Part shown: in pieces, positions 5,671 through 64,000 of the stretch | How the letters are laid out: every line of letters begins with the position of its first letter | Position numbering within the stretch: the first letter of the stretch is position 1 | Assembly: GCA_032250835.1 (NCBI GenBank) | Contig: JAVVEA010000008.1 | Location: 79,943-143,942 of the forward strand | Reading direction: 5' to 3' | DNA: 64,000 nt | From: a bacterium | GTDB taxonomy: Bacteria > SAR324 > XYD2-FULL-50-16 | The notes under the pieces: generated by a model | The model's input: only the letters and a program-made list of their open reading frames with translations | The model's database searches: none | What the model was told of the DNA's origin: nothing | Program-made: the position numbers and the translations under genes

Positions 5671-6141
5671 ATGTTCAAGCGAAATCACCTGGCCCTTACC
5701 GCCATCTTTCTGTGGGTCCTGACCCTGGTGGTTTTCGGCTATTTTGTTTACTTCGGGACGCTGACCGGCGAAGTCGAAGGGGGCCGCAAGGTGATCCAGG
5801 TAACAGCCAGCGAGTTGGCCTTCATCCAAGAGCGGATGATTTTTTCCTTAAAACAAATCGCCCAGATCCAAGCCGCCTTGGCCGTAGAGGACTTGAAAGC
5901 CATCGTCGAGCCCGCCCGCAGCCTGGGCCGGGGCAACGGCGTCGAAGCCCCCAAGAGCCTACCCTTAAAAATGCCCTTCGATTTTAGGCGCTTGATCGTC
6001 ACCAACCAAGAAATCTTCTCCGGCATGGCCGAAAAGTCCGCCCAGGGAGCCTTCCCTTCAGAACTCCAAGAAGACCTCACCCGCGTCTTAAAAAACTGCC
6101 ATGAGTGCCACGCGAAGTTTAAGGTGGTGGCGGGGGAATAA
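5671..6141 (+). CDS. Membrane-anchored monoheme cytochrome c, class II (c'-like)
   Basis: N-terminal hydrophobic anchor, helical body, single C-terminal CHECH heme motif. Confidence 0.8.
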   Translation: MFKRNHLALTAIFLWVLTLVVFGYFVYFGTLTGEVEGGRKVIQVTASELAFIQERMIFSLKQIAQIQAALAVEDLKAIVEPARSLGRGNGVEAPKSLPLKMPFDFRRLIVTNQEIFSGMAEKSAQGAFPSELQEDLTRVLKNCHECHAKFKVVAGE

Positions 6142-6159
6142 TGGTATCTTTTGGAACTA

Positions 6160-7155
6160 TTACTTCAGTATACGATCAGCAATCAAATTTGCCACGACAC
6201 CAAAACCTAATGAGACAATGGAATAAAGTAGGCTATTAATCAAATATCGCTTTCTGGCAATTTTATCAGTTTGAATCAACTTTTCGTCCCCTTTGTTCAA
6301 TTTAATGTATGTCGCGTGATTGATTTTTGTGGCGTATTCTTCAACGAGCATCCCAATCTGTGTTCCTGCTTTATGAAAGATGTACATAAAAAATATTGAT
6401 ATAATTAGGAAACTTGCCTGTTGATGGGGCATGCTCACCGAAAAGTACTTGAATATTTGTGCTGAATTTTCAGCAATAAAATAGGAAATGAAGCCAAAAA
6501 ATGCCAGTTGAAATCCAGGCCGATAGAACTTTCTCAAGCCTTTGAATATTTTGATCGGCTTTGAATGCGTATCGTTTGGTAGCCCTTTTAACCATTCTTC
6601 GAAAGCAGCCTTTACAGTGTTTGCAATTATGAAATCCACATAAGTAATCTCTATAGCTGCTGTTACAAAGTCTATTAGGTCGAATAGTTGGTAGGGTACT
6701 TTTTGGCCTACCTCTTTCATCCAAGCAACGCCTGAAACAAGGTGTATTTCAATTTTATAAGGCTGTGGGTGATCTGTGTCCTGAGTGTGTTTGACAAAAT
6801 TGTATTCGAGCATTACTCGGGAAACTGGGTTGATCCCGTTTTGATTGTATGAATGAAATTTATCAAACGAACTAAAGCGAGAAGTTTCACTTTCGCTATG
6901 AAAAACCCAAACAGTGCAACCATGCCTAGATACGCCTAGTGTCCGAAGGACTTGGAGTATCTTGATGTTTAGCTGGGCAAGCTCTTGAAATTCCAACTGA
7001 AACGGCTCAGAGTATTCGTTTTTTTGCTTGTCTGTTTTTCCCGTAACTAGATGATAATATTCTTGAAATTGGTGAACATCAATTGCCAGGTTACTAGTAG
7101 TCTCAGTTCTTTGATAGCTAACGGAACTTGATGTGTTTGATGGTTGATTCTCCAA
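6160..7155 (-). CDS. Hypothetical AT-rich membrane protein (soluble N-domain, about 3 C-terminal TM segments)
   Basis: 331-aa ORF in a visibly AT-rich patch; hydrophobic stretches in the C-terminal third; TTG start uncertain. Confidence 0.75.
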   Translation of the reverse strand: MENQPSNTSSSVSYQRTETTSNLAIDVHQFQEYYHLVTGKTDKQKNEYSEPFQLEFQELAQLNIKILQVLRTLGVSRHGCTVWVFHSESETSRFSSFDKFHSYNQNGINPVSRVMLEYNFVKHTQDTDHPQPYKIEIHLVSGVAWMKEVGQKVPYQLFDLIDFVTAAIEITYVDFIIANTVKAAFEEWLKGLPNDTHSKPIKIFKGLRKFYRPGFQLAFFGFISYFIAENSAQIFKYFSVSMPHQQASFLIISIFFMYIFHKAGTQIGMLVEEYATKINHATYIKLNKGDEKLIQTDKIARKRYLINSLLYSIVSLGFGVVANLIADRILK

Positions 7156-7338
7156 TATTTACCCCAGATTACTATAGGTTGAAATACGTGCAGATATTAC
7201 AAAGTCAGAATGTTCATATCAACATAAAAAAAGCCTCAAGCTATAGGCAATCTTGATATTGTCTTAGGAAAGCAAGTTCCATGAAGCTTTCTTCAACACA
7301 AGGATTGGCTTGGGTGGATGCCGCTAAAATTGATCAGC

Positions 7339-8241
7339 CTAAATCTCCCCCATCAGCGCCAAATACCCTTCATAAACCTCGCGGTCCAGCAGTTCCTTTT
7401 GCACTTCGGCTTTGACGTTGCAGTGGGGTTCGTGGGTGTGGGTGCAGTCGGCGTGTTTGCAGTGGCCGCTGTAGTCTTTGATCAAGGGGAAGTGGAAGCG
7501 CAGGTTGTCTTTGGTCGCCCCCCAAAGGCTGAACTCGCGGATGCCCGGCGTGTCGATCACCTGGCCCGCTTCGCCGATGGAGATCATGCGGGCGTAGGTG
7601 GTGGTGTGGGCTCCCTTTTGGGTCTTCTCGCTGATCTCGCCTACTTTGAGGTCCAAGCCCGGAAAGAGCCGGTTGATCAGGCTCGACTTGCCCACCCCCG
7701 AAGGGCCCGAAAAGACGCAGACGCTGCTGCCGATCAACTCGGCCAAGCGGGCATCGTCGGCACTGCCGCCTTTACTGCTGAATAAAATTTCTAAGTCGAT
7801 ATTTAAGAAGGGGCGCAGGAAGGGCAGGTCTTTGTGGTGGTGGACCAAGTCCATTTTGGTCATCACCAAGACCGGGCGCACGTTGCCCAAGCTGGCGGCA
7901 ACCAACATCCGCCAAACCAATCCGGCGCGCGGGTCCGGCTGTTTGGCCGCCAAGCTGATGAACATCACGTCCACATTAGCGGCAATCACCTGTTCGGCCT
8001 CAATGCCCACCCGGGCGCGGGACAAGAAGGATTTGCGTTCTTCTAGGGCGCTGATCAGGCCGATGTCCTCGCCTTCGCCCATACGGTAACTGACCCGGTC
8101 CCCCACGGCGATTTGGTTGTCGAACTTGCTCTTTTGGAAGAGCGCTCCTTTGGCTTTACACTCTACTTCGACCCCCTCGGGGGTGCGTAAGTAATAAAAA
8201 CCTTTGGTGCGGCGGGCCACGGTGGCGATCAGCTCGGACAT
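7339..8241 (-). CDS. rsgA: Ribosome small subunit-dependent GTPase A
   Basis: OB fold (VGDRV), TKMD, GPSGVGKSS, HTTT, DTPG, C-terminal CKHADCTHTHEPHC zinc site. Confidence 0.96.
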   Translation of the reverse strand: MSELIATVARRTKGFYYLRTPEGVEVECKAKGALFQKSKFDNQIAVGDRVSYRMGEGEDIGLISALEERKSFLSRARVGIEAEQVIAANVDVMFISLAAKQPDPRAGLVWRMLVAASLGNVRPVLVMTKMDLVHHHKDLPFLRPFLNIDLEILFSSKGGSADDARLAELIGSSVCVFSGPSGVGKSSLINRLFPGLDLKVGEISEKTQKGAHTTTYARMISIGEAGQVIDTPGIREFSLWGATKDNLRFHFPLIKDYSGHCKHADCTHTHEPHCNVKAEVQKELLDREVYEGYLALMGEI

Positions 8242-12671: not shown

Positions 12672-13121
12672 ATGTTTTTTGCTCGCTTAACTACCGGCCT
12701 CGTTGTGGCCGGACTGTTGTTTTTTGGTGGTTCTAGACAGGCCCTCGCGGTCGGCAAAGAAGCCCATTCTACCGTGATTGCCCTGATGTTAGTTAGCGGC
12801 AGCACCAGCCTTTACGACGGCGTGCAATTCAACAAGCTGGCCGACGAAAATAAGGGATTGGAAACTGAGTATTCCACCACCACTAGCACGACCCGCCGCC
12901 TAGAAATCGAACAGAAATACAGTAAAAACAAAGAAGAGATGCAGTTGCTTGATAAGCGTATGGTATTGGCTGATCAGGTAACCCTTGCTTTTGCCGGTCT
13001 GGAAGTCGTTTTATTGCTGCAAACGGGCTTAGAGAAATTGTTTAGTGACGGGCGGCATTGGGAACTTCGGCCCATGGTCCGCCGCGAAGGTTCCGGGTTT
13101 GAATTTAGTTGGAAATATTAA
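12672..13121 (+). CDS. Hypothetical exported/membrane protein
   Basis: Signal-like N-terminus, short coiled segment, C-terminal amphipathic strand GFEFSWKY; TAATG overlap with the next gene. Confidence 0.7.
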   Translation: MFFARLTTGLVVAGLLFFGGSRQALAVGKEAHSTVIALMLVSGSTSLYDGVQFNKLADENKGLETEYSTTTSTTRRLEIEQKYSKNKEEMQLLDKRMVLADQVTLAFAGLEVVLLLQTGLEKLFSDGRHWELRPMVRREGSGFEFSWKY

Positions 13122-14152
13122 TGAAATCAATTAAATACCTGATAATATTAAGCCTGCTAGTCGGCTGTGGCAAGCAACTGACCCAGGATAATCAAGGGGC
13201 GGCGGATAAAGAATTGCCTGAAAGGACCACACTGACCTTTTCCGGCCTTAGCGGTACGCCCGCCGAAGGTGGGGCAACGGCCAGCATGACCGTTCAAGCG
13301 GGCTACGCCCCGACCAGTTCCTTTACTTTGACCTTGACGGATGCCCAGAACCAGATTTCCTTTAGCCCAGAAAAGTTAGTCTTTACCGCCGACAACTGGT
13401 CCGTGGCCCGAGAGGTGACGATCACGGCTATTGATGATTCCGATAACGACGACAACGCCGTAGGGACCGTAGGGTTTAGAGTCTTAACCGACGATCTGGT
13501 CTACCAAAAGGCGACCGCCAATAGCTATTCGGTGAGTACCCTGGATAACGACAGCCGACTCGACGAATTGGGAGCCTACGAGTTTACCTTGCTGCGCTCG
13601 GGCGGGACCTGTCCCGCCGGCTTTACCGCCGGGTCCATCAGCTTAGATACCGAGGACTTAAGTAACAACGACAGCGTGACCGGCGAGGTGGGGGATACCT
13701 GGACCGGGTCGAACGGGCTGCATCTTGAGCTTTGCACCTTGGACCAGCCGATCTCTAGTGCTTGGTCTAATGCTACGGCCACGGGGTTTGCCTTCTTGCG
13801 CCATGGGGGAAGTTGTCCTAGCGGGATGGCCGAAGGAACCATCCGCATCAACAGCGAAATCGACAATACGGACAGTAGCATATCGGGCAATGCTGGCGAC
13901 AGCTACATTAAGGCACCCTATGTCTACTTAGAAACCTGCGAATCCACCGCCAGCTTCGACTATACCCTGTTAGAAACCGCCTCGTTTACGCTCTTTAAAA
14001 GTGGCAGCTGCCCTGGCTCTTCTTCAGGGGCGATCATCAAGGTAGACACCGAAGACGACACAAATTACGACGCTTGGTCCGGAGCGGTCGGCGACAGCTA
14101 CGTCTCCCAAGACCAGGGCACCAGCGTCTTCTTGCAGGTTTGCACCTATTAG
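13121..14152 (+). CDS. Lipoprotein with Ig/Calx-beta-like domain and three Cys-bounded ApeC-like repeats
   Basis: Lipobox LVGC; FTADNW..EVTITAIDD surface-protein motif; three CPxG...D(T)ED...C repeats. Confidence 0.8.
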   Translation: MKSIKYLIILSLLVGCGKQLTQDNQGAADKELPERTTLTFSGLSGTPAEGGATASMTVQAGYAPTSSFTLTLTDAQNQISFSPEKLVFTADNWSVAREVTITAIDDSDNDDNAVGTVGFRVLTDDLVYQKATANSYSVSTLDNDSRLDELGAYEFTLLRSGGTCPAGFTAGSISLDTEDLSNNDSVTGEVGDTWTGSNGLHLELCTLDQPISSAWSNATATGFAFLRHGGSCPSGMAEGTIRINSEIDNTDSSISGNAGDSYIKAPYVYLETCESTASFDYTLLETASFTLFKSGSCPGSSSGAIIKVDTEDDTNYDAWSGAVGDSYVSQDQGTSVFLQVCTY

Positions 14153-14651: not shown

Positions 14652-14894
14652 ATGTTCCGCACCCAAATCTATCTGACCGAGTCGGAGCGCGAGGGGTTAA
14701 AGGCCCTTTCGGCTCAAGAAGGCACCAGCCAAAGCGAGCTGATCCGCCAAGCCATTGACCGCTACCTCCTGGAGCACCAGCAAAAGGACTGGAAAGGCAA
14801 CCTGTTGGCCCTTGCGGGGTGTTTGTCTGAGAAAGAGGATTGGCCGGACTTTCAGGCCCTGCGCGCCGAAGGGGACCGGGAGTTGAACTGGTGA
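14652..14894 (+). CDS. CopG/ribbon-helix-helix antitoxin (VapB-like)
   Basis: MFRTQIYLT...SQSELIRQAIDRYL; GGAGG RBS; overlaps the PIN gene. Confidence 0.88.
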   Translation: MFRTQIYLTESEREGLKALSAQEGTSQSELIRQAIDRYLLEHQQKDWKGNLLALAGCLSEKEDWPDFQALRAEGDRELNW

Positions 14895-15307
14895 AGCCCT
14901 ACTTGCTCGACACCTGCATCCTGATCGACTTCAGCCGAGGCAACCCCCAGGCCGGTGAGTTCATGCAAGGATTGGAGCAACAACCGCTGATTTCCTCACT
15001 GGTCGTCGCCGAGTTATACGCCGGAATCAAAAAGCCCAAGGAGCGGGCTTTGGTGGGGAAATTAGTTGAGGCATGCTGCGTGGTGGAATTAACGCAGACC
15101 ATGGCCGAACAAGGCGGCAAGTGGCGCGCCCAATACGGCCCCAGCCACCACGTTGGCCTAATCGACCCCCTCCTAGCCGCCACCGCCCAGGAAGCGGGAG
15201 CAGTTTTCGCCACCCTAAACCTAAAGCACTTCCCTATGCTGGGTGCAAAGACGTTGCTCAAGCCTTACCAAAAGGTTTGGGGAATCTGCGGCCTCCCGCC
15301 CCAATGA
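14891..15307 (+). CDS. vapC: PIN-domain toxin
   Basis: GTG start in GTGA overlap; LLDTCILIDF, ELYAG, ID-LLAATA, TLNLKHF. Confidence 0.9.
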   Translation: MKPYLLDTCILIDFSRGNPQAGEFMQGLEQQPLISSLVVAELYAGIKKPKERALVGKLVEACCVVELTQTMAEQGGKWRAQYGPSHHVGLIDPLLAATAQEAGAVFATLNLKHFPMLGAKTLLKPYQKVWGICGLPPQ

Positions 15308-15447: not shown

Positions 15448-15750
15448 TTAGGCTTCAGCTAGCGCCTCAAAGGGCTTGATCTTGGGCAAGCTTTTATCTT
15501 GGCCCGCCTCCCAAAGGTCCACTGCTTCTTGTAGGTTCAACCAGAACTCGGGACTGGTCTGGGTAAACATTCCCAGCCGGATCGCCATATTCGCCGAAAG
15601 CGCTTGCCGCTCGTTGACCAGAGCACTGATGGTTTTGCGGGTGACGCCCAACCGGTCCGCTAAACCCTGCTGGCTCAAGCCAAATTCCGCCAAAATATCT
15701 TCTTTGATGTAAACACCTGGATGGGTGGGCCTTACGTTGCTGCGGATCAT
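15448..15750 (-). CDS. higA: HigA-family antitoxin (HTH)
   Basis: PTHPGVYIKED...LADRLGV...SPEFWLNLQ. Confidence 0.93.
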   Translation of the reverse strand: MIRSNVRPTHPGVYIKEDILAEFGLSQQGLADRLGVTRKTISALVNERQALSANMAIRLGMFTQTSPEFWLNLQEAVDLWEAGQDKSLPKIKPFEALAEA

Positions 15751-15759
15751 TGGCTTTCC

Positions 15760-16038
15760 TTAGTGGTAATCTTCAAAGAGAACATCCTGAGCGCCATCGT
15801 TCCAACTAAAGGAGATGCGCCACTGGATGTTGATTCGAATGGCGTATCTGGCGGGGTTGTGCCCCTGCAAAGCGTGAAACTTATTGGAAGGGGGAAAGTA
15901 AAGGTCCTCAAGCCTACTGGCAGCATGAAGACGATCCAACCCTTTTTTTACTTTGCGGGCGAGGTTAAAATCAACATTCTTGGCTTTCCCTTCTGTGAAG
16001 AGCTGTGCAGTGGTTTTGTCTCGGAAGAAATGGATCAT
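15760..16038 (-). CDS. higB: HigB (RelE-like) toxin
   Basis: MIHFFRDK...PPSNKFHALQG...IRINIQWRISF...DYH; upstream of higA. Confidence 0.93.
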   Translation of the reverse strand: MIHFFRDKTTAQLFTEGKAKNVDFNLARKVKKGLDRLHAASRLEDLYFPPSNKFHALQGHNPARYAIRINIQWRISFSWNDGAQDVLFEDYH

Positions 16039-16610: not shown

Positions 16611-16793
16611 GGGGGTTCCCTCTCAGTGTAATTTGGCCCTAGTTTAGTCCCTTATGCCTCTGCTGGCAACGACCAAAGAGCCGCCTTCGGGCGGGTCTTT
16701 TAAGAAGGGGCTGGCGAGCTTGGCTTGTGCCGGGGTCCGAAACCGGATAGAATGGGCTTGACCTGTTACTTTAAACCCCATCCGCAAAGCTCT

Positions 16794-17324
16794 ATGCCGC
16801 GCCACCTGCTGACTTGGTTGCTTCCTTTCGTCTTATTCACCTTGGCGGTCGGTTGTGACCGGGAAAATCGAGCCCTCAACCAGCTGCCGCCCCGCGAACC
16901 TTTAGAAGTGGCCCCGCGCATCCCACCGGCCATGAAGGCCATGGGGCAGTTAGTCTACGTGCCGGTCTATTCTTCGATTCAAGAGGGCCAAAAGGGACGG
17001 TTGTTCCACCTAAGTGCTCACCTGTCGGTGCGTAACATTTCCCAGAAAAACAGCATTGTGTTGGCTGTGGCAGACTATTACGACAGCAACGGAAAACAGG
17101 TGCGCAGGCTCTTAGAAGCTCCGGTCAAACTGGGGCCCATGGCCAGCACGGACTTTTTCATCCGCAGCAACGACCTAGCCGGAGTAACCGGGGCTAGCTT
17201 CTTGGTGGAATGGGAGGCCGAAAATCCAACGGCCCCGCCGGTGGTCCAAGCGGTCATGCTGGGCACCAACGGGGGCCAGGGGATTTCTTTCGTGACCAAC
17301 GGTCTGCCGGTGGATTCACACTGA
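16794..17324 (+). CDS. DUF3124-type lipoprotein
   Basis: Lipobox AVGC; GQLVYVPVYS, LSVRN, DYYDSNG, GASFLVEW, GISF; ATG at 16794 preferred. Confidence 0.85.
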   Translation: MPRHLLTWLLPFVLFTLAVGCDRENRALNQLPPREPLEVAPRIPPAMKAMGQLVYVPVYSSIQEGQKGRLFHLSAHLSVRNISQKNSIVLAVADYYDSNGKQVRRLLEAPVKLGPMASTDFFIRSNDLAGVTGASFLVEWEAENPTAPPVVQAVMLGTNGGQGISFVTNGLPVDSH

Positions 17325-61412: not shown

Positions 61413-62372
61413 ATGGAAGGTTACATGTTTAATATATCAGAATCTATCAAGGAGAACCTTAACCAATTGTTTTTGAAAATTCATTCTTCACCACACAAAA
61501 AAGAGCAGTTTGGAAACTTCCTATCTCAAGCTGTTCAAGGTTTTGGAGAGGTATCGTTTGAGGTAATTGAGCGATTAATACATATTCGCGATTCAGCAGC
61601 GGACGGTTTTTTGATTGTGAGAAATCTCCCCACAGATCATGAAGTCCCTCTTACTCCCTATGATTGGAACGCAGTAACTGAAAAATCAACGCAAATAAGC
61701 GAAGCCTGTTTGGCTATGTTTTCAGGTATTCTAGGGCGGGCCTATAACTACCGGTCAGAGGGGGTTGACTCATTCTTTAGAAACATTGTGCCGATCCACC
61801 AAAAACACCCCAAGAATTTAAATACTTATTTCGGGGCTTATGGTCTTGGGATGCATACAGAACACGCATATCATCCGCTTCCGCCCGATTTTGTCCTGCT
61901 TTACTGCATACGCGGTGATCCTACAGCAGTGACGACCGTTTCAAATCTAAACTGTGCACTTGAAAACTTAAGTCAGAGAACCATTGCTTTATTACAGAGA
62001 GAAGATTTTAAGTTTACGGCCCCGGAATCCCTGTTCGACCAAATTCCAGAATGTGAACGTCTAAGCCCAGCTACCGCCATCCTGAGGAGAATAAACGGAA
62101 CCTTCGAGCTTCGCCTCAGATCGTTCAGTATGATTGCAGCCAACCAAGAGGCTCAGAAAGCTTTACTTCAACTCAACACAGAGCTTGACCGTTGTGCAGT
62201 CAGAATTTCTATGAAATCAGGAGACTTAATGGTCATTAATAATCGAAAATCATCGCACTCTAGGACTAAATACGACCCAAAATTTGACGGCAAAGACCGT
62301 TGGTTACAGCAACTATTTGTACGCAAGGAGATATGTTTAGATCACCCTGCGGTGGAGGATTTTTTCTTCTGA
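61413..62372 (+). CDS. Clavaminate-synthase-like Fe(II)/2-oxoglutarate oxygenase (TauD superfamily)
   Basis: GFLIVRNLP, MHTEH (HxE), PDFVLLYC-RGD, GDLMVINN--SSHSR, DGKDRWLQ; AGGAG RBS before ATG 61413. Confidence 0.88.
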   Translation: MEGYMFNISESIKENLNQLFLKIHSSPHKKEQFGNFLSQAVQGFGEVSFEVIERLIHIRDSAADGFLIVRNLPTDHEVPLTPYDWNAVTEKSTQISEACLAMFSGILGRAYNYRSEGVDSFFRNIVPIHQKHPKNLNTYFGAYGLGMHTEHAYHPLPPDFVLLYCIRGDPTAVTTVSNLNCALENLSQRTIALLQREDFKFTAPESLFDQIPECERLSPATAILRRINGTFELRLRSFSMIAANQEAQKALLQLNTELDRCAVRISMKSGDLMVINNRKSSHSRTKYDPKFDGKDRWLQQLFVRKEICLDHPAVEDFFF

Positions 62373-62434
62373 AAGGTTGCCCCTAAGGCCCCCATGATAG
62401 GCATAGTGCAGATAACATACAATTATCTTCAATT

Positions 62435-63676
62435 ATGCTTTCCGACCTTTTTAATTACGAGAAAGAGACATTTTTTAACTATATCAATTTGATAGGTAGC
62501 GCCAGTTATCCCCATCTCCCCACAATAGCTTACAAATCTCTTCCGTTCCAAACCGTACCTCATGAGCTGACTTACAGCTCAAGTTATTTTCCCCGAGCTG
62601 AAACAACTCGAATTCTCACAGATAAAGCAAATATTCTACTTCACGGTCTATTTGAAGGTAGCGAGGAATATGATTGCGACATCCAGCCCTGGTCGGGTAC
62701 GCAGGCAAACCAAATTGTTTTTAATGCCGTTCTGAAGCCTGGTGATCGAATTCTTGCGTTAGATCTGAAATCTGGGGGACACATCTCGTATCACAGCTTC
62801 AATAAACGTTTTTATAATCTAGATACTTATGAGTGCGGACCTGATGGCCTTATCGACTATACTGAACTTTGCGAAAAGATTCTCGCAGTAAAACCGCAAC
62901 TTGTTATTATTGGTGGGAGTTCTTACCCAAGGTCTTTTAAGTATGAAGCAGTCCATCAGTCTTGCCAAGAGGTTGGGAGTCTGCTCTTGGCCGACATTGC
63001 GCACCGCGACATCTATATCGCAGCAAAACTCCATGAATCGCCCTTCGGTTTTGCTGATTTTATCACGACCACGACCCATAAGGCGCTGCGTGGGCCGCGT
63101 GGCGGCATTATTTTGTATAAAGGAAAATTTGCACGGCAACTCAAAAATTCTGTTTTCCCTGTCATGCAAGGAGCACCGGACATAGCAAGCATGATCAGCA
63201 AAGTTAGCTGCCTGCAATTCAATACACCCGATGAGGTTCAACGCTTTGCGCTAAGCGCAAGGCACTCGATTGCGCGGTTCAAGGAGTTTTTTGAGTCCAA
63301 AAGATTTCCGCTAATATCCGATGGAACAGACACTCATTTGCTCTTAGTCGATATCCGTTGCACCGGAGAAACGGGGAAAGAGTTAGAACGGCTTCTGGAA
63401 AAAAACATGATTTTAATCAATCGAAATTGCATCCCCCAAGACCCGCTTAAAGCCAACTTGGCGTCTGGAATACGTCTGGGTTCCCTCGGTGTAGCCTCTT
63501 TAGGTTTTAATTCTGAAGAGTTGAATTTTGTTATTTCCCAACTAGAGCAGGTTTTTCAGGGACATCAAGCCGATGTGAGAAGGATTAAATCGCTGATTCA
63601 TGAGAAGGTGTCTCAATATTTAAAAGGTTGGGAAAATGGGATGAGTGAAGTCAAAATGCGGATGATAGGACAATGA
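62435..63676 (+). CDS. Serine hydroxymethyltransferase-like PLP enzyme (non-canonical)
   Basis: QPWSGTQAN, GGHIS, DIAH, TTTTHKALRGPRGG, GTDTHLLL, SGIRLG; N-terminal SHMT motifs altered. Confidence 0.88.
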   Translation: MLSDLFNYEKETFFNYINLIGSASYPHLPTIAYKSLPFQTVPHELTYSSSYFPRAETTRILTDKANILLHGLFEGSEEYDCDIQPWSGTQANQIVFNAVLKPGDRILALDLKSGGHISYHSFNKRFYNLDTYECGPDGLIDYTELCEKILAVKPQLVIIGGSSYPRSFKYEAVHQSCQEVGSLLLADIAHRDIYIAAKLHESPFGFADFITTTTHKALRGPRGGIILYKGKFARQLKNSVFPVMQGAPDIASMISKVSCLQFNTPDEVQRFALSARHSIARFKEFFESKRFPLISDGTDTHLLLVDIRCTGETGKELERLLEKNMILINRNCIPQDPLKANLASGIRLGSLGVASLGFNSEELNFVISQLEQVFQGHQADVRRIKSLIHEKVSQYLKGWENGMSEVKMRMIGQ

Positions 63677-63960
63677 AAATACTTGGAATTGGCGGTTCAG
63701 ATCACGATTTTAGCGCAGCACTGGCGGTCAACGGGCAAGTGAAGATTGCGATTAGCGATGAACGGATCAACCGGTTGAAACATGGCAGGGGTGACCTCTT
63801 CAGTCTCCCGCTTCAACCATCCATTCAATACTGTTTAAAGGATCAAGCTTTGGAACTCTCTGAAGTAGATCAAATTGTGGGCAATAAGCACCTCGAAAAG
63901 CGTTGTTTTGACCAAAACCTCCCAAGTATAGTGGACCCACTTGTCCAGACAACTTTTTGA
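63673..63960 (+). pseudogene. CmcH/NodU-type carbamoyltransferase, N-terminal fragment (interrupted)
   Basis: MKILGI...HDFSAAL--NG----AISDER-NR-KH; stops after 95 aa inside an IS-like end. Confidence 0.8.
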
Positions 63961-64000
63961 TTAGACGATCTTCCTGATCTTTTTTTCTAAGCAATCTTCA
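63927..64000 (-). mobile_element. Probable terminal inverted repeat and transposase tail of an IS3-family element
   Basis: TATAGTGGACCCACTTGTCCAGACA resembles IS3/IS150-type ends; a minus-strand frame ends ...EDCLEKKIRKIV* just inside it. Confidence 0.55.

Follow-up and report, generated by a model that had tools for sequence, protein, structure and literature searches.

A predicted bacterial lipoprotein with a three-fold ApeC domain on an Ig-like stalk

Can ApeC, an immune domain of lectin type that many aquatic invertebrates possess, be part of a bacterial lipoprotein, and where in the bacterial cell would it act? The question is raised by a gene in a 64,000-nucleotide (nt) stretch of a SAR324 genome (assembly GCA_032250835.1, contig JAVVEA010000008.1, positions 79,943 to 143,942 of the forward strand). 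This whole stretch is called the window here; positions are counted from its first letter, and features are on the + strand unless stated otherwise. A sequence-only reading of the window had proposed a surface-displayed bacterial homolog of ApeC, with three repeats on an immunoglobulin (Ig)/Calx-beta-like stalk behind a lipobox, that would act as an adhesin for glycans or as a mimic. In the open reading frame (ORF) listing of the window, the gene lies in an open frame at 13109..14152 that starts with TTG; an ATG at 13121 gives a product of 343 amino acids (aa), P0001, hereafter the window lipoprotein, and its stop codon is at 14150-14152. We find that the C-terminal domain of this protein is a homolog of the ApeC domain found in pattern-recognition proteins of invertebrates. 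The homology is well supported, since profile, reciprocal search, in-register conserved columns and predicted-structure superposition agree on it.

A three-fold domain homologous to ApeC

The C-terminal domain spans 193 residues and is composed of three homologous units of about 65 aa, in each of which a Cys-Pro...Cys pair accompanies an acidic loop of the form D-T-E-D-x-x-N-x-D. Repeat 1 (residues 151-212, 13571..13756) runs from C164-P through DTED (176-179) to C205; repeat 2 (residues 213-284, 13757..13972) from C232-P through a degenerate NSEI (244-247) to C273; and repeat 3 (residues 285-343, 13973..14149) from C297-P through DTED (309-312) to C341, the period being 65-68 aa. All three repeat strings quoted by the sequence-only reading are present in the translation of this real ORF. 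A plain BLASTP of P0001 against itself reported the identity match and none of the repeats, and Smith-Waterman scores with shuffles were used in its place. Scores were 105 (R1-R2), 96 (R1-R3) and 78 (R2-R3), with shuffle means of about 25 (standard deviation 5), giving z values of 15.6, 13.9 and 10.5, respectively; for each pair the observed score was reached in 0/2000 shuffles. At the DNA level only 12-nt matches were found between the repeats, so the triplication is old and visible in the protein alone.

The sole Pfam match of the window lipoprotein is ApeC (PF16977), at 26.2 bits (E 8.2e-6), with the gathering cut-off of this family at 26.5 bits. P0001 already bears the label PF16977.11 in the precomputed Pfam column of the protein collection, and in a six-frame search of the genome, where neighbouring stretches are added, the frame scores 27.7 bits, above the cut-off. 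A word-based search returned two full-length relatives, P0002 (49% identity) and P0003 (35%), which score 37.7 and 56.5 bits. The Pfam check suggested by the sequence-only reading thus came out in favour of ApeC for the family, in which 10 of the 12 members lie above the cut-off (33.6-56.5 bits), and short of it for the window protein itself (26.2 bits) and for P0016 (24.3 bits).

The reciprocal search used a profile (A2) of the C-terminal region only, run against 1.84 billion representatives. It matched 288 proteins at E<=1e-3, 28 of them at E<=1e-10 and 10 at E<=1e-30. Among the first 42 matches listed, 38 carry Pfam ApeC (E<=1e-3), 34 of these above the cut-off. Pfam ApeC was found in 116 of 132 scanned proteins and MACPF in 7; the scanned set consists of P0001, P0002 and 130 listed matches of at most 620 aa, with 19 longer matches and P0003 outside it. 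Lytechinus, Ostrea edulis, Mercenaria mercenaria, Magallana gigas and Amphiura filiformis are the sources of the named matches, a set of sea urchins, oysters, one clam and one brittle star. The window's family and the other matches share, in register, the conserved columns C-P-x-G, D-x-E-D-x-x-N, G and F-C. Two phage-tail-like proteins with DUF2793 repeats, encoded outside the window (P0024 and P0027; 2221 and 2339 aa), also match the profile at E ~3e-14. They do so through many repeated 'GW.W.DTDD' units, and their resemblance to the ApeC region is probably at the level of motifs.

The predicted structures point the same way. The full-length model has a mean predicted local distance difference test score (pLDDT) of 84.8, and the ApeC domain modelled alone reaches a pLDDT of 89.9 and a predicted template-modelling (TM) score of 0.88. 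The Atlas model of P0001 superposes on a mollusc MACPF+ApeC cluster with a TM score of 0.85 over 186 residues, a comparison of one prediction with another, and on two bacterial secreted-protein clusters at 0.81-0.82. In fold searches of the whole model the stalk took up the results, and the domain was searched alone. For the domain, Foldseek found no row at E<=1e-3 in the PDB, and the viral library likewise gave none; VIA-align against 48,161 chains returned a single chain at Z>=2 (3kls_A; Z 2.1, root-mean-square deviation (rmsd) 5.0, 79 residues aligned), and VIA on the best 997 chains of Foldseek returned 0. By sequence, the PDB gave one chance match to the single domain (E 0.23) and one to a 68-row profile (E 0.66). 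No solved structure resembling the ApeC domain was therefore found in the PDB by sequence and fold searches. Among the matches listed by a literature search on an ApeC crystal structure, the subjects were avian pathogenic E. coli, the abbreviation APECED and the aryl-polyene protein ApeC, and none concerned this domain. The fold search proposed earlier thus returned no solved neighbour and a close predicted one. The APCbeta domain of Toxoplasma perforin-like protein 1 (TgPLP1; 5ouo, 6d7a) was the top Foldseek row (E 0.069, TM 0.22); this lead was dropped because the second aligner placed 0 of the 997 chains at Z>=2.

To place the domain among its relatives we used an alignment of 68 sequences (A5), composed of the 12 closest relatives and 56 hand-picked matches that are shorter than 600 aa and match most of the profile in one stretch (P0021 and P0025 are not among them). 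Three cysteine classes are seen. In the window's family (12 rows) all six cysteine columns are Cys, with six Cys in the domain in 10 rows and eight in 2; in the four-Cys pattern, the published bacterial type (34 rows), Cys stands at the first four columns only and the third pair is missing; in the animal type (22 rows) all six columns are Cys within a total of 8-13, and every named member is an animal protein. The symmetry between repeats is best kept in the window's family: taking for each protein the mean z between its repeats, the median is 13.8 there (range 9.4-16.0, n=12), 6.1 in the animal type (n=22) and 6.0 in the four-Cys type (n=34). In this family DxED is present at sites 1, 2 and 3 in 10/12, 9/12 and 12/12 members, and site 3 reads DTED in all 12.

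In a maximum-likelihood (ML) tree of 198 columns each class is split off by one branch. The branch of the window's family has a support of 97/92, that of the animal type 100/99 and that of the four-Cys type 100/100; the bootstrap is not fully settled (correlation 0.945), and two of the three classes are defined by two columns lying within the tree alignment. A quick tree agrees on the three clans. The window's family is thus a separate third clan, nested in neither the four-Cys nor the animal clan. The phylogeny with animal ApeC that had been suggested earlier therefore sets the family apart from the animal type, while the tree is unrooted, so which two clans are sisters cannot be read from it. 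Rooting by using the repeats as mutual outgroups was tried and failed, as clan membership, and not position, decides how the repeats group. Each of R1, R2 and R3 takes 4 changes, and the family's 36 repeats all fall into one clan (support 92, 58 columns). This clustering could reflect homogenisation, independent triplication or weak signal.

Lipid anchor, stalk and partner gene

The N-terminus of the window lipoprotein, MKSIKYLIILSLLVGC, has a basic, K-rich start and a hydrophobic core, followed by the lipobox LVGC at residues 13-16; signal peptide and lipobox are encoded at 13121..13168, and Cys16 is predicted to be lipidated. A lipobox is found in 12/14 family proteins, none of which has Asp at +2. 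The genome encodes Lgt (two copies), LspA, LolA (two copies), Omp85 and DsbA-family proteins. Judged by its lipobox and by these processing enzymes, P0001 is a predicted bacterial lipoprotein, and here the earlier proposal holds. The best DsbA-family match, which lies outside the window (G000:C11:579174-579740, - strand), has one in-frame TGA in a 220-aa frame. A selenocysteine site, an error in sequencing or a broken gene might each explain this TGA.

A flexible linker (residues 17-33, 13169..13219; pLDDT <50 at residues 17-28 of the full-length model) leads to an Ig-like beta-sandwich (residues 34-144, 13220..13552; pLDDT >90 along most of its length) that has an acidic loop, IDDSDNDDN. The best VIA match of this stalk is a PapD-like chaperone domain (2co7_B; Z 9.2, rmsd 3.0, 105 aligned), and Calx-beta CBD1 chains score Z 7.1-7.9. 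By BLASTP the stalk aligns with five tandem repeats of P0004 (E 1e-8), including residues 357-468 of that protein, which Pfam recognises as Calx-beta at 35 bits. The stalk of the window protein itself has no Pfam Calx-beta match at E<=5, its best match being fn3_6 (E 0.062), and in relatives Calx-beta appears below the cut-off (P0003, E 0.0015; P0011, E 0.036). The description of the stalk as Ig/Calx-beta-like thus survives: 'Calx-beta-like' is a fair label, and membership in Calx-beta (PF03160) goes beyond the evidence. From the lipid Cys to the first Cys-Pro there are 38 residues in one family protein, 141-149 in ten and 372 in one, spacings that correspond to zero, one or three stalk domains.

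Directly upstream lies a small gene (12672..13121, 149 aa), delimited by its ORF and by the junction at which its stop TAA shares an A with the ATG of the lipoprotein gene (TAATG). By hydropathy its product has a signal-like hydrophobic stretch at the N-terminus, consistent with export, and a second hydrophobic helix at about 97-118, and its C-terminus reads F-x-W-K-Y. A homologous small gene directly precedes the lipoprotein gene, abutting or overlapping it, in 4/4 loci (the window, L021, L048 and L049; alignment A4). A word-based search found 4 such proteins including the window's own, and one relative is labelled SAR324 cluster bacterium by its source. No Pfam family matched the small protein above the cut-off; its Atlas neighbours are DUF5683-like, below the tool's bar. 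The small protein is a probable partner of the lipoprotein, putatively for anchoring or export. NCBIfam assigned no family to either protein.

The source genome (3.66 Mb, 97% complete) has a single ApeC gene by six-frame search. The family was found in 3/88 genomes of the phylum, the window's own counted, all three within one family-level group, and in 0/69 genomes of the other family-level groups. Elsewhere, a Myxococcota-type sample gave distant matches only (13/301 genomes, in open frames of 362-1205 aa), and the phylum sample around G088 gave none (0/301). None of 20 loci from a genome contig search covered the ApeC domain; among 24 loci from metagenome contigs one did (L021), the others matching in the stalk only, and 0/5 of the genomes behind stalk-only loci matched. 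Bacterial ApeC-like domains are joined to Peptidase_M10, GDPD, ChW and FlgD_ig, and the Atlas holds bacterial look-alikes in a Por_Secre_tail cluster and in a 'Secreted protein' cluster.

The flanking genes vary among the loci of the lipoprotein/small-gene pair. In the window a LeuA/CimA-type synthase gene lies upstream of the pair. Two type II toxin-antitoxin pairs lie directly 3' of it: one at 14652-15307 (+) and one at 15448-16038 (-). In one of them a ribbon-helix-helix antitoxin partners a PIN toxin, in the other HigA (HTH_3) partners HigB. Further on, at 16725-17324 (+), a DUF3124 protein (E 9e-43) has a lipoprotein-like N-terminus (LAVGC). A scan for promoters and terminators around the genes gave nothing above expectation. 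The guanine-cytosine (GC) content is 0.536 over the 12-14 kb stretch, with a range of 0.439-0.600 in the window; most of the window has 0.52-0.60, against 0.458 at 6001-8000 and 0.439 at 62001-64000.

A putative lectin of the outer membrane and the rival explanations

We propose, with a probability of about 0.6, that P0001 is an envelope lipoprotein of the outer membrane that holds a true ApeC-type domain on a stalk, acts as a putative lectin and is, by a slight preference, exposed at the surface. It would be exported by Sec, lipidated by Lgt and LspA and passed by Lol to the outer membrane, a destination suggested by the lack of Asp after the lipid Cys. DsbA-type enzymes may close one disulfide per repeat. 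By analogy with the animal domains, the three-fold domain would function as a lectin, with a sugar-containing ligand held by its acidic loops. The stalk, with 0, 1 or 3 copies in relatives, would set its reach, and the small upstream protein, encoded with overlapping stop and start, may aid anchoring or export of the lipoprotein. We lean to the surface because the stalk domains vary in number, the gene is rare, and other bacterial ApeC-like domains are found in a secreted context.

Several points weigh against this proposal. Surface exposure, slightly favoured as it is, has no direct support; a search for Slam/SlipAM gave no match and is uninformative, as it was silent in the control genomes as well. 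The rule of sorting by the +2 residue stems from E. coli, and this lineage may not follow it. On its own the window lipoprotein sits 0.3 bits under the Pfam cut-off, and the distribution of the family is rare and patchy (3/88 genomes of the phylum). The DxED pattern named by the sequence-only reading stands in repeats 1 and 3 (DTED) and fails in repeat 2 (NSEI). We found no binding, localisation or expression data in the literature for any bacterial ApeC protein, and a search for sequencing runs listed none, RNA included. In addition, the available part of PMC9585378 reports that the snail protein BgACP1 binds peptidoglycan with all three DXED motifs mutated, which makes the acidic-loop mechanism a guess. 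Binding of DxED mutants had been proposed as one check and is a weaker test than assumed, the middle motif of the window protein being already degenerate. Loss of DxED does not exclude membership in ApeC, since the motifs are also mutated in animal ACP3, ACP5 and BgACP1 (available parts of PMC8361754 and PMC9585378).

The same protein might instead face the periplasm, its ApeC domain gripping the cell's own peptidoglycan and serving, like Pal or Lpp, as a tether or as a sensor of the wall, with stalk and linker spanning the gap and the partner placed in a membrane. Lol-sorted lipoproteins face the periplasm by default in well-studied diderms, the linker plus one Ig-like domain have a plausible length for this, and no surface-export factor was matched in the uninformative Slam search. 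Peptidoglycan is, moreover, the only ligand class shown experimentally for the ApeC family in the available parts of PMC8361754 and PMC9585378. However, relatives with zero or three stalk domains place between 38 and 372 residues before the domain, and such variable length fits poorly with a fixed distance between membrane and wall. The absence of the gene from 85/88 genomes of the phylum argues that it is not a core part of the envelope, and other bacterial ApeC-like domains occur in secreted proteins; we regard the periplasmic orientation as the less likely of the two, though worth keeping in view. A triple-repeat domain that is no lectin is a still more doubtful proposition. Such a domain would serve as a structural cap that binds Ca2+, or as a module that binds a protein such as the small partner or a surface protein of another cell. 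The DTED..N.D loops and the acidic stalk loop resemble metal sites, the partner gene is strictly linked, and the literature, as far as it was available, held no functional test of any bacterial ApeC; nevertheless, the functional data on the family all point to glycan or peptidoglycan recognition (PMC8361754, PMC9585378 and PMC12373286, in their available parts).

Two further explanations concern the origin of the resemblance. The strongest profile matches beyond the family are animal proteins, for instance P0021 of a sea urchin (E 7e-18), as would be expected of a recent transfer of an animal ApeC gene (host mimicry) or of animal DNA contaminating the assembly. Yet the family stands as a clan of its own (97/92) outside the 22 animal-type rows, and the gene has a bacterial lipobox and stalk, overlaps a bacterial partner gene, has a GC content of 0.536 within the window range, lies on a contig of 143,942 bases and has orthologs in two more genomes of the same family; transfer and contamination are thus disfavoured as very improbable. 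As for a chance match of a cysteine-rich acidic repeat, to which the Pfam score of P0001 just below the cut-off might give room, it is refuted by the reciprocal profile search with ApeC in 116/132 matches, the in-register columns and the TM of 0.85 to animal ApeC models. In a more far-reaching extension of the outer-membrane reading, which we consider improbable, the six-Cys lipoprotein clan would be, among living forms, the one that has diverged least from the original ApeC triplication, and the animal immune domain would derive from marine bacteria of this kind, the bacterial protein gripping its own peptidoglycan from the outer membrane with the help of its partner. If this were true, a module with which bacteria hold their wall would have become, in animals, a receptor that detects such walls.

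Comparison with known systems

The stalk of the window lipoprotein resembles Calx-beta (PF03160; CBD1 of NCX1 and of CALX) in that it is an equally large Ig-like sandwich and has an acidic loop, and differs from it by the lack of a Pfam match and by the equal or higher scores of PapD-like and other Ig-like folds (up to Z 9.2). The APCbeta domain of Toxoplasma perforin-like protein 1 is comparable to ApeC in being a beta-rich C-terminal domain that follows MACPF, as ApeC does in apextrins, and we take it to be three-fold as well. In contrast to this likeness of arrangement, its weak Foldseek match gives no evidence of a common fold.

The animal ApeC domains (amphioxus ACP1/2/3/5, oyster CgACP1, snail BgACP1 and the MACPF+ApeC apextrins) share with the window domain a size of about 200 residues in three in-register units. 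The six Cys columns of the window domain are Cys in 22/22 animal-type rows, the predicted folds superpose with a TM of 0.85, and both kinds of organism are aquatic. The hallmark of the animal domain is eight cysteines that are conserved, together with three DXED motifs (PMC8361754), and it binds peptidoglycan (PMC8361754, PMC9585378), as stated in the available parts of these sources. The window domain has six cysteines where animal domains have eight or more, and in that respect P0001 is not of the animal type. Its family also differs by repeats that are far more similar to each other (median z 13.8 versus 6.1), by its position as a separate clan, and by a lipid anchor and Calx-beta-like stalk in place of MACPF, lectin or CUB partners.

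Distant homologs of ApeC in bacteria have been described before, according to the available part of PMC8361754, which, citing Li et al. 2021 (Mol Phylogenet Evol 155:107009), credits the bacterial type with four of the eight cysteines and describes it as apparently single-domain. Four-Cys ApeC-like domains were also observed here inside large multi-domain proteins (L050-L057 of Myxococcota type, P0038 and P0046), in contrast with that description as far as it is available. The window's family has in common with the published type a bacterial origin, a three-unit domain and the first and second Cys pairs. Unlike the described type, it keeps the third Cys pair, is multi-domain and is lipid-anchored, and the 34 four-Cys rows form their own clan (100/100) apart from it. 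The literature available on ApeC with apextrin, bacteria or prokaryotes, which did not cover Li et al. 2021, held no lipoprotein or six-Cys bacterial form.

A bacterial ApeC homolog, as put forward by the sequence-only reading, is therefore not new in itself: bacterial relatives are already in print, current Pfam labels P0001, and the general picture of the reach of ApeC into bacteria is unchanged. What appears to be new here is the six-Cys, symmetric, predicted lipid-anchored and stalked form with a partner gene. It indicates that bacterial ApeC-like domains are not all four-cysteine and single-domain, and it adds a third lineage for tracing the origin of the animal domain. With three putative disulfides and a confident model, this symmetric bacterial ApeC could be tractable for a first experimental structure and for ligand mapping.

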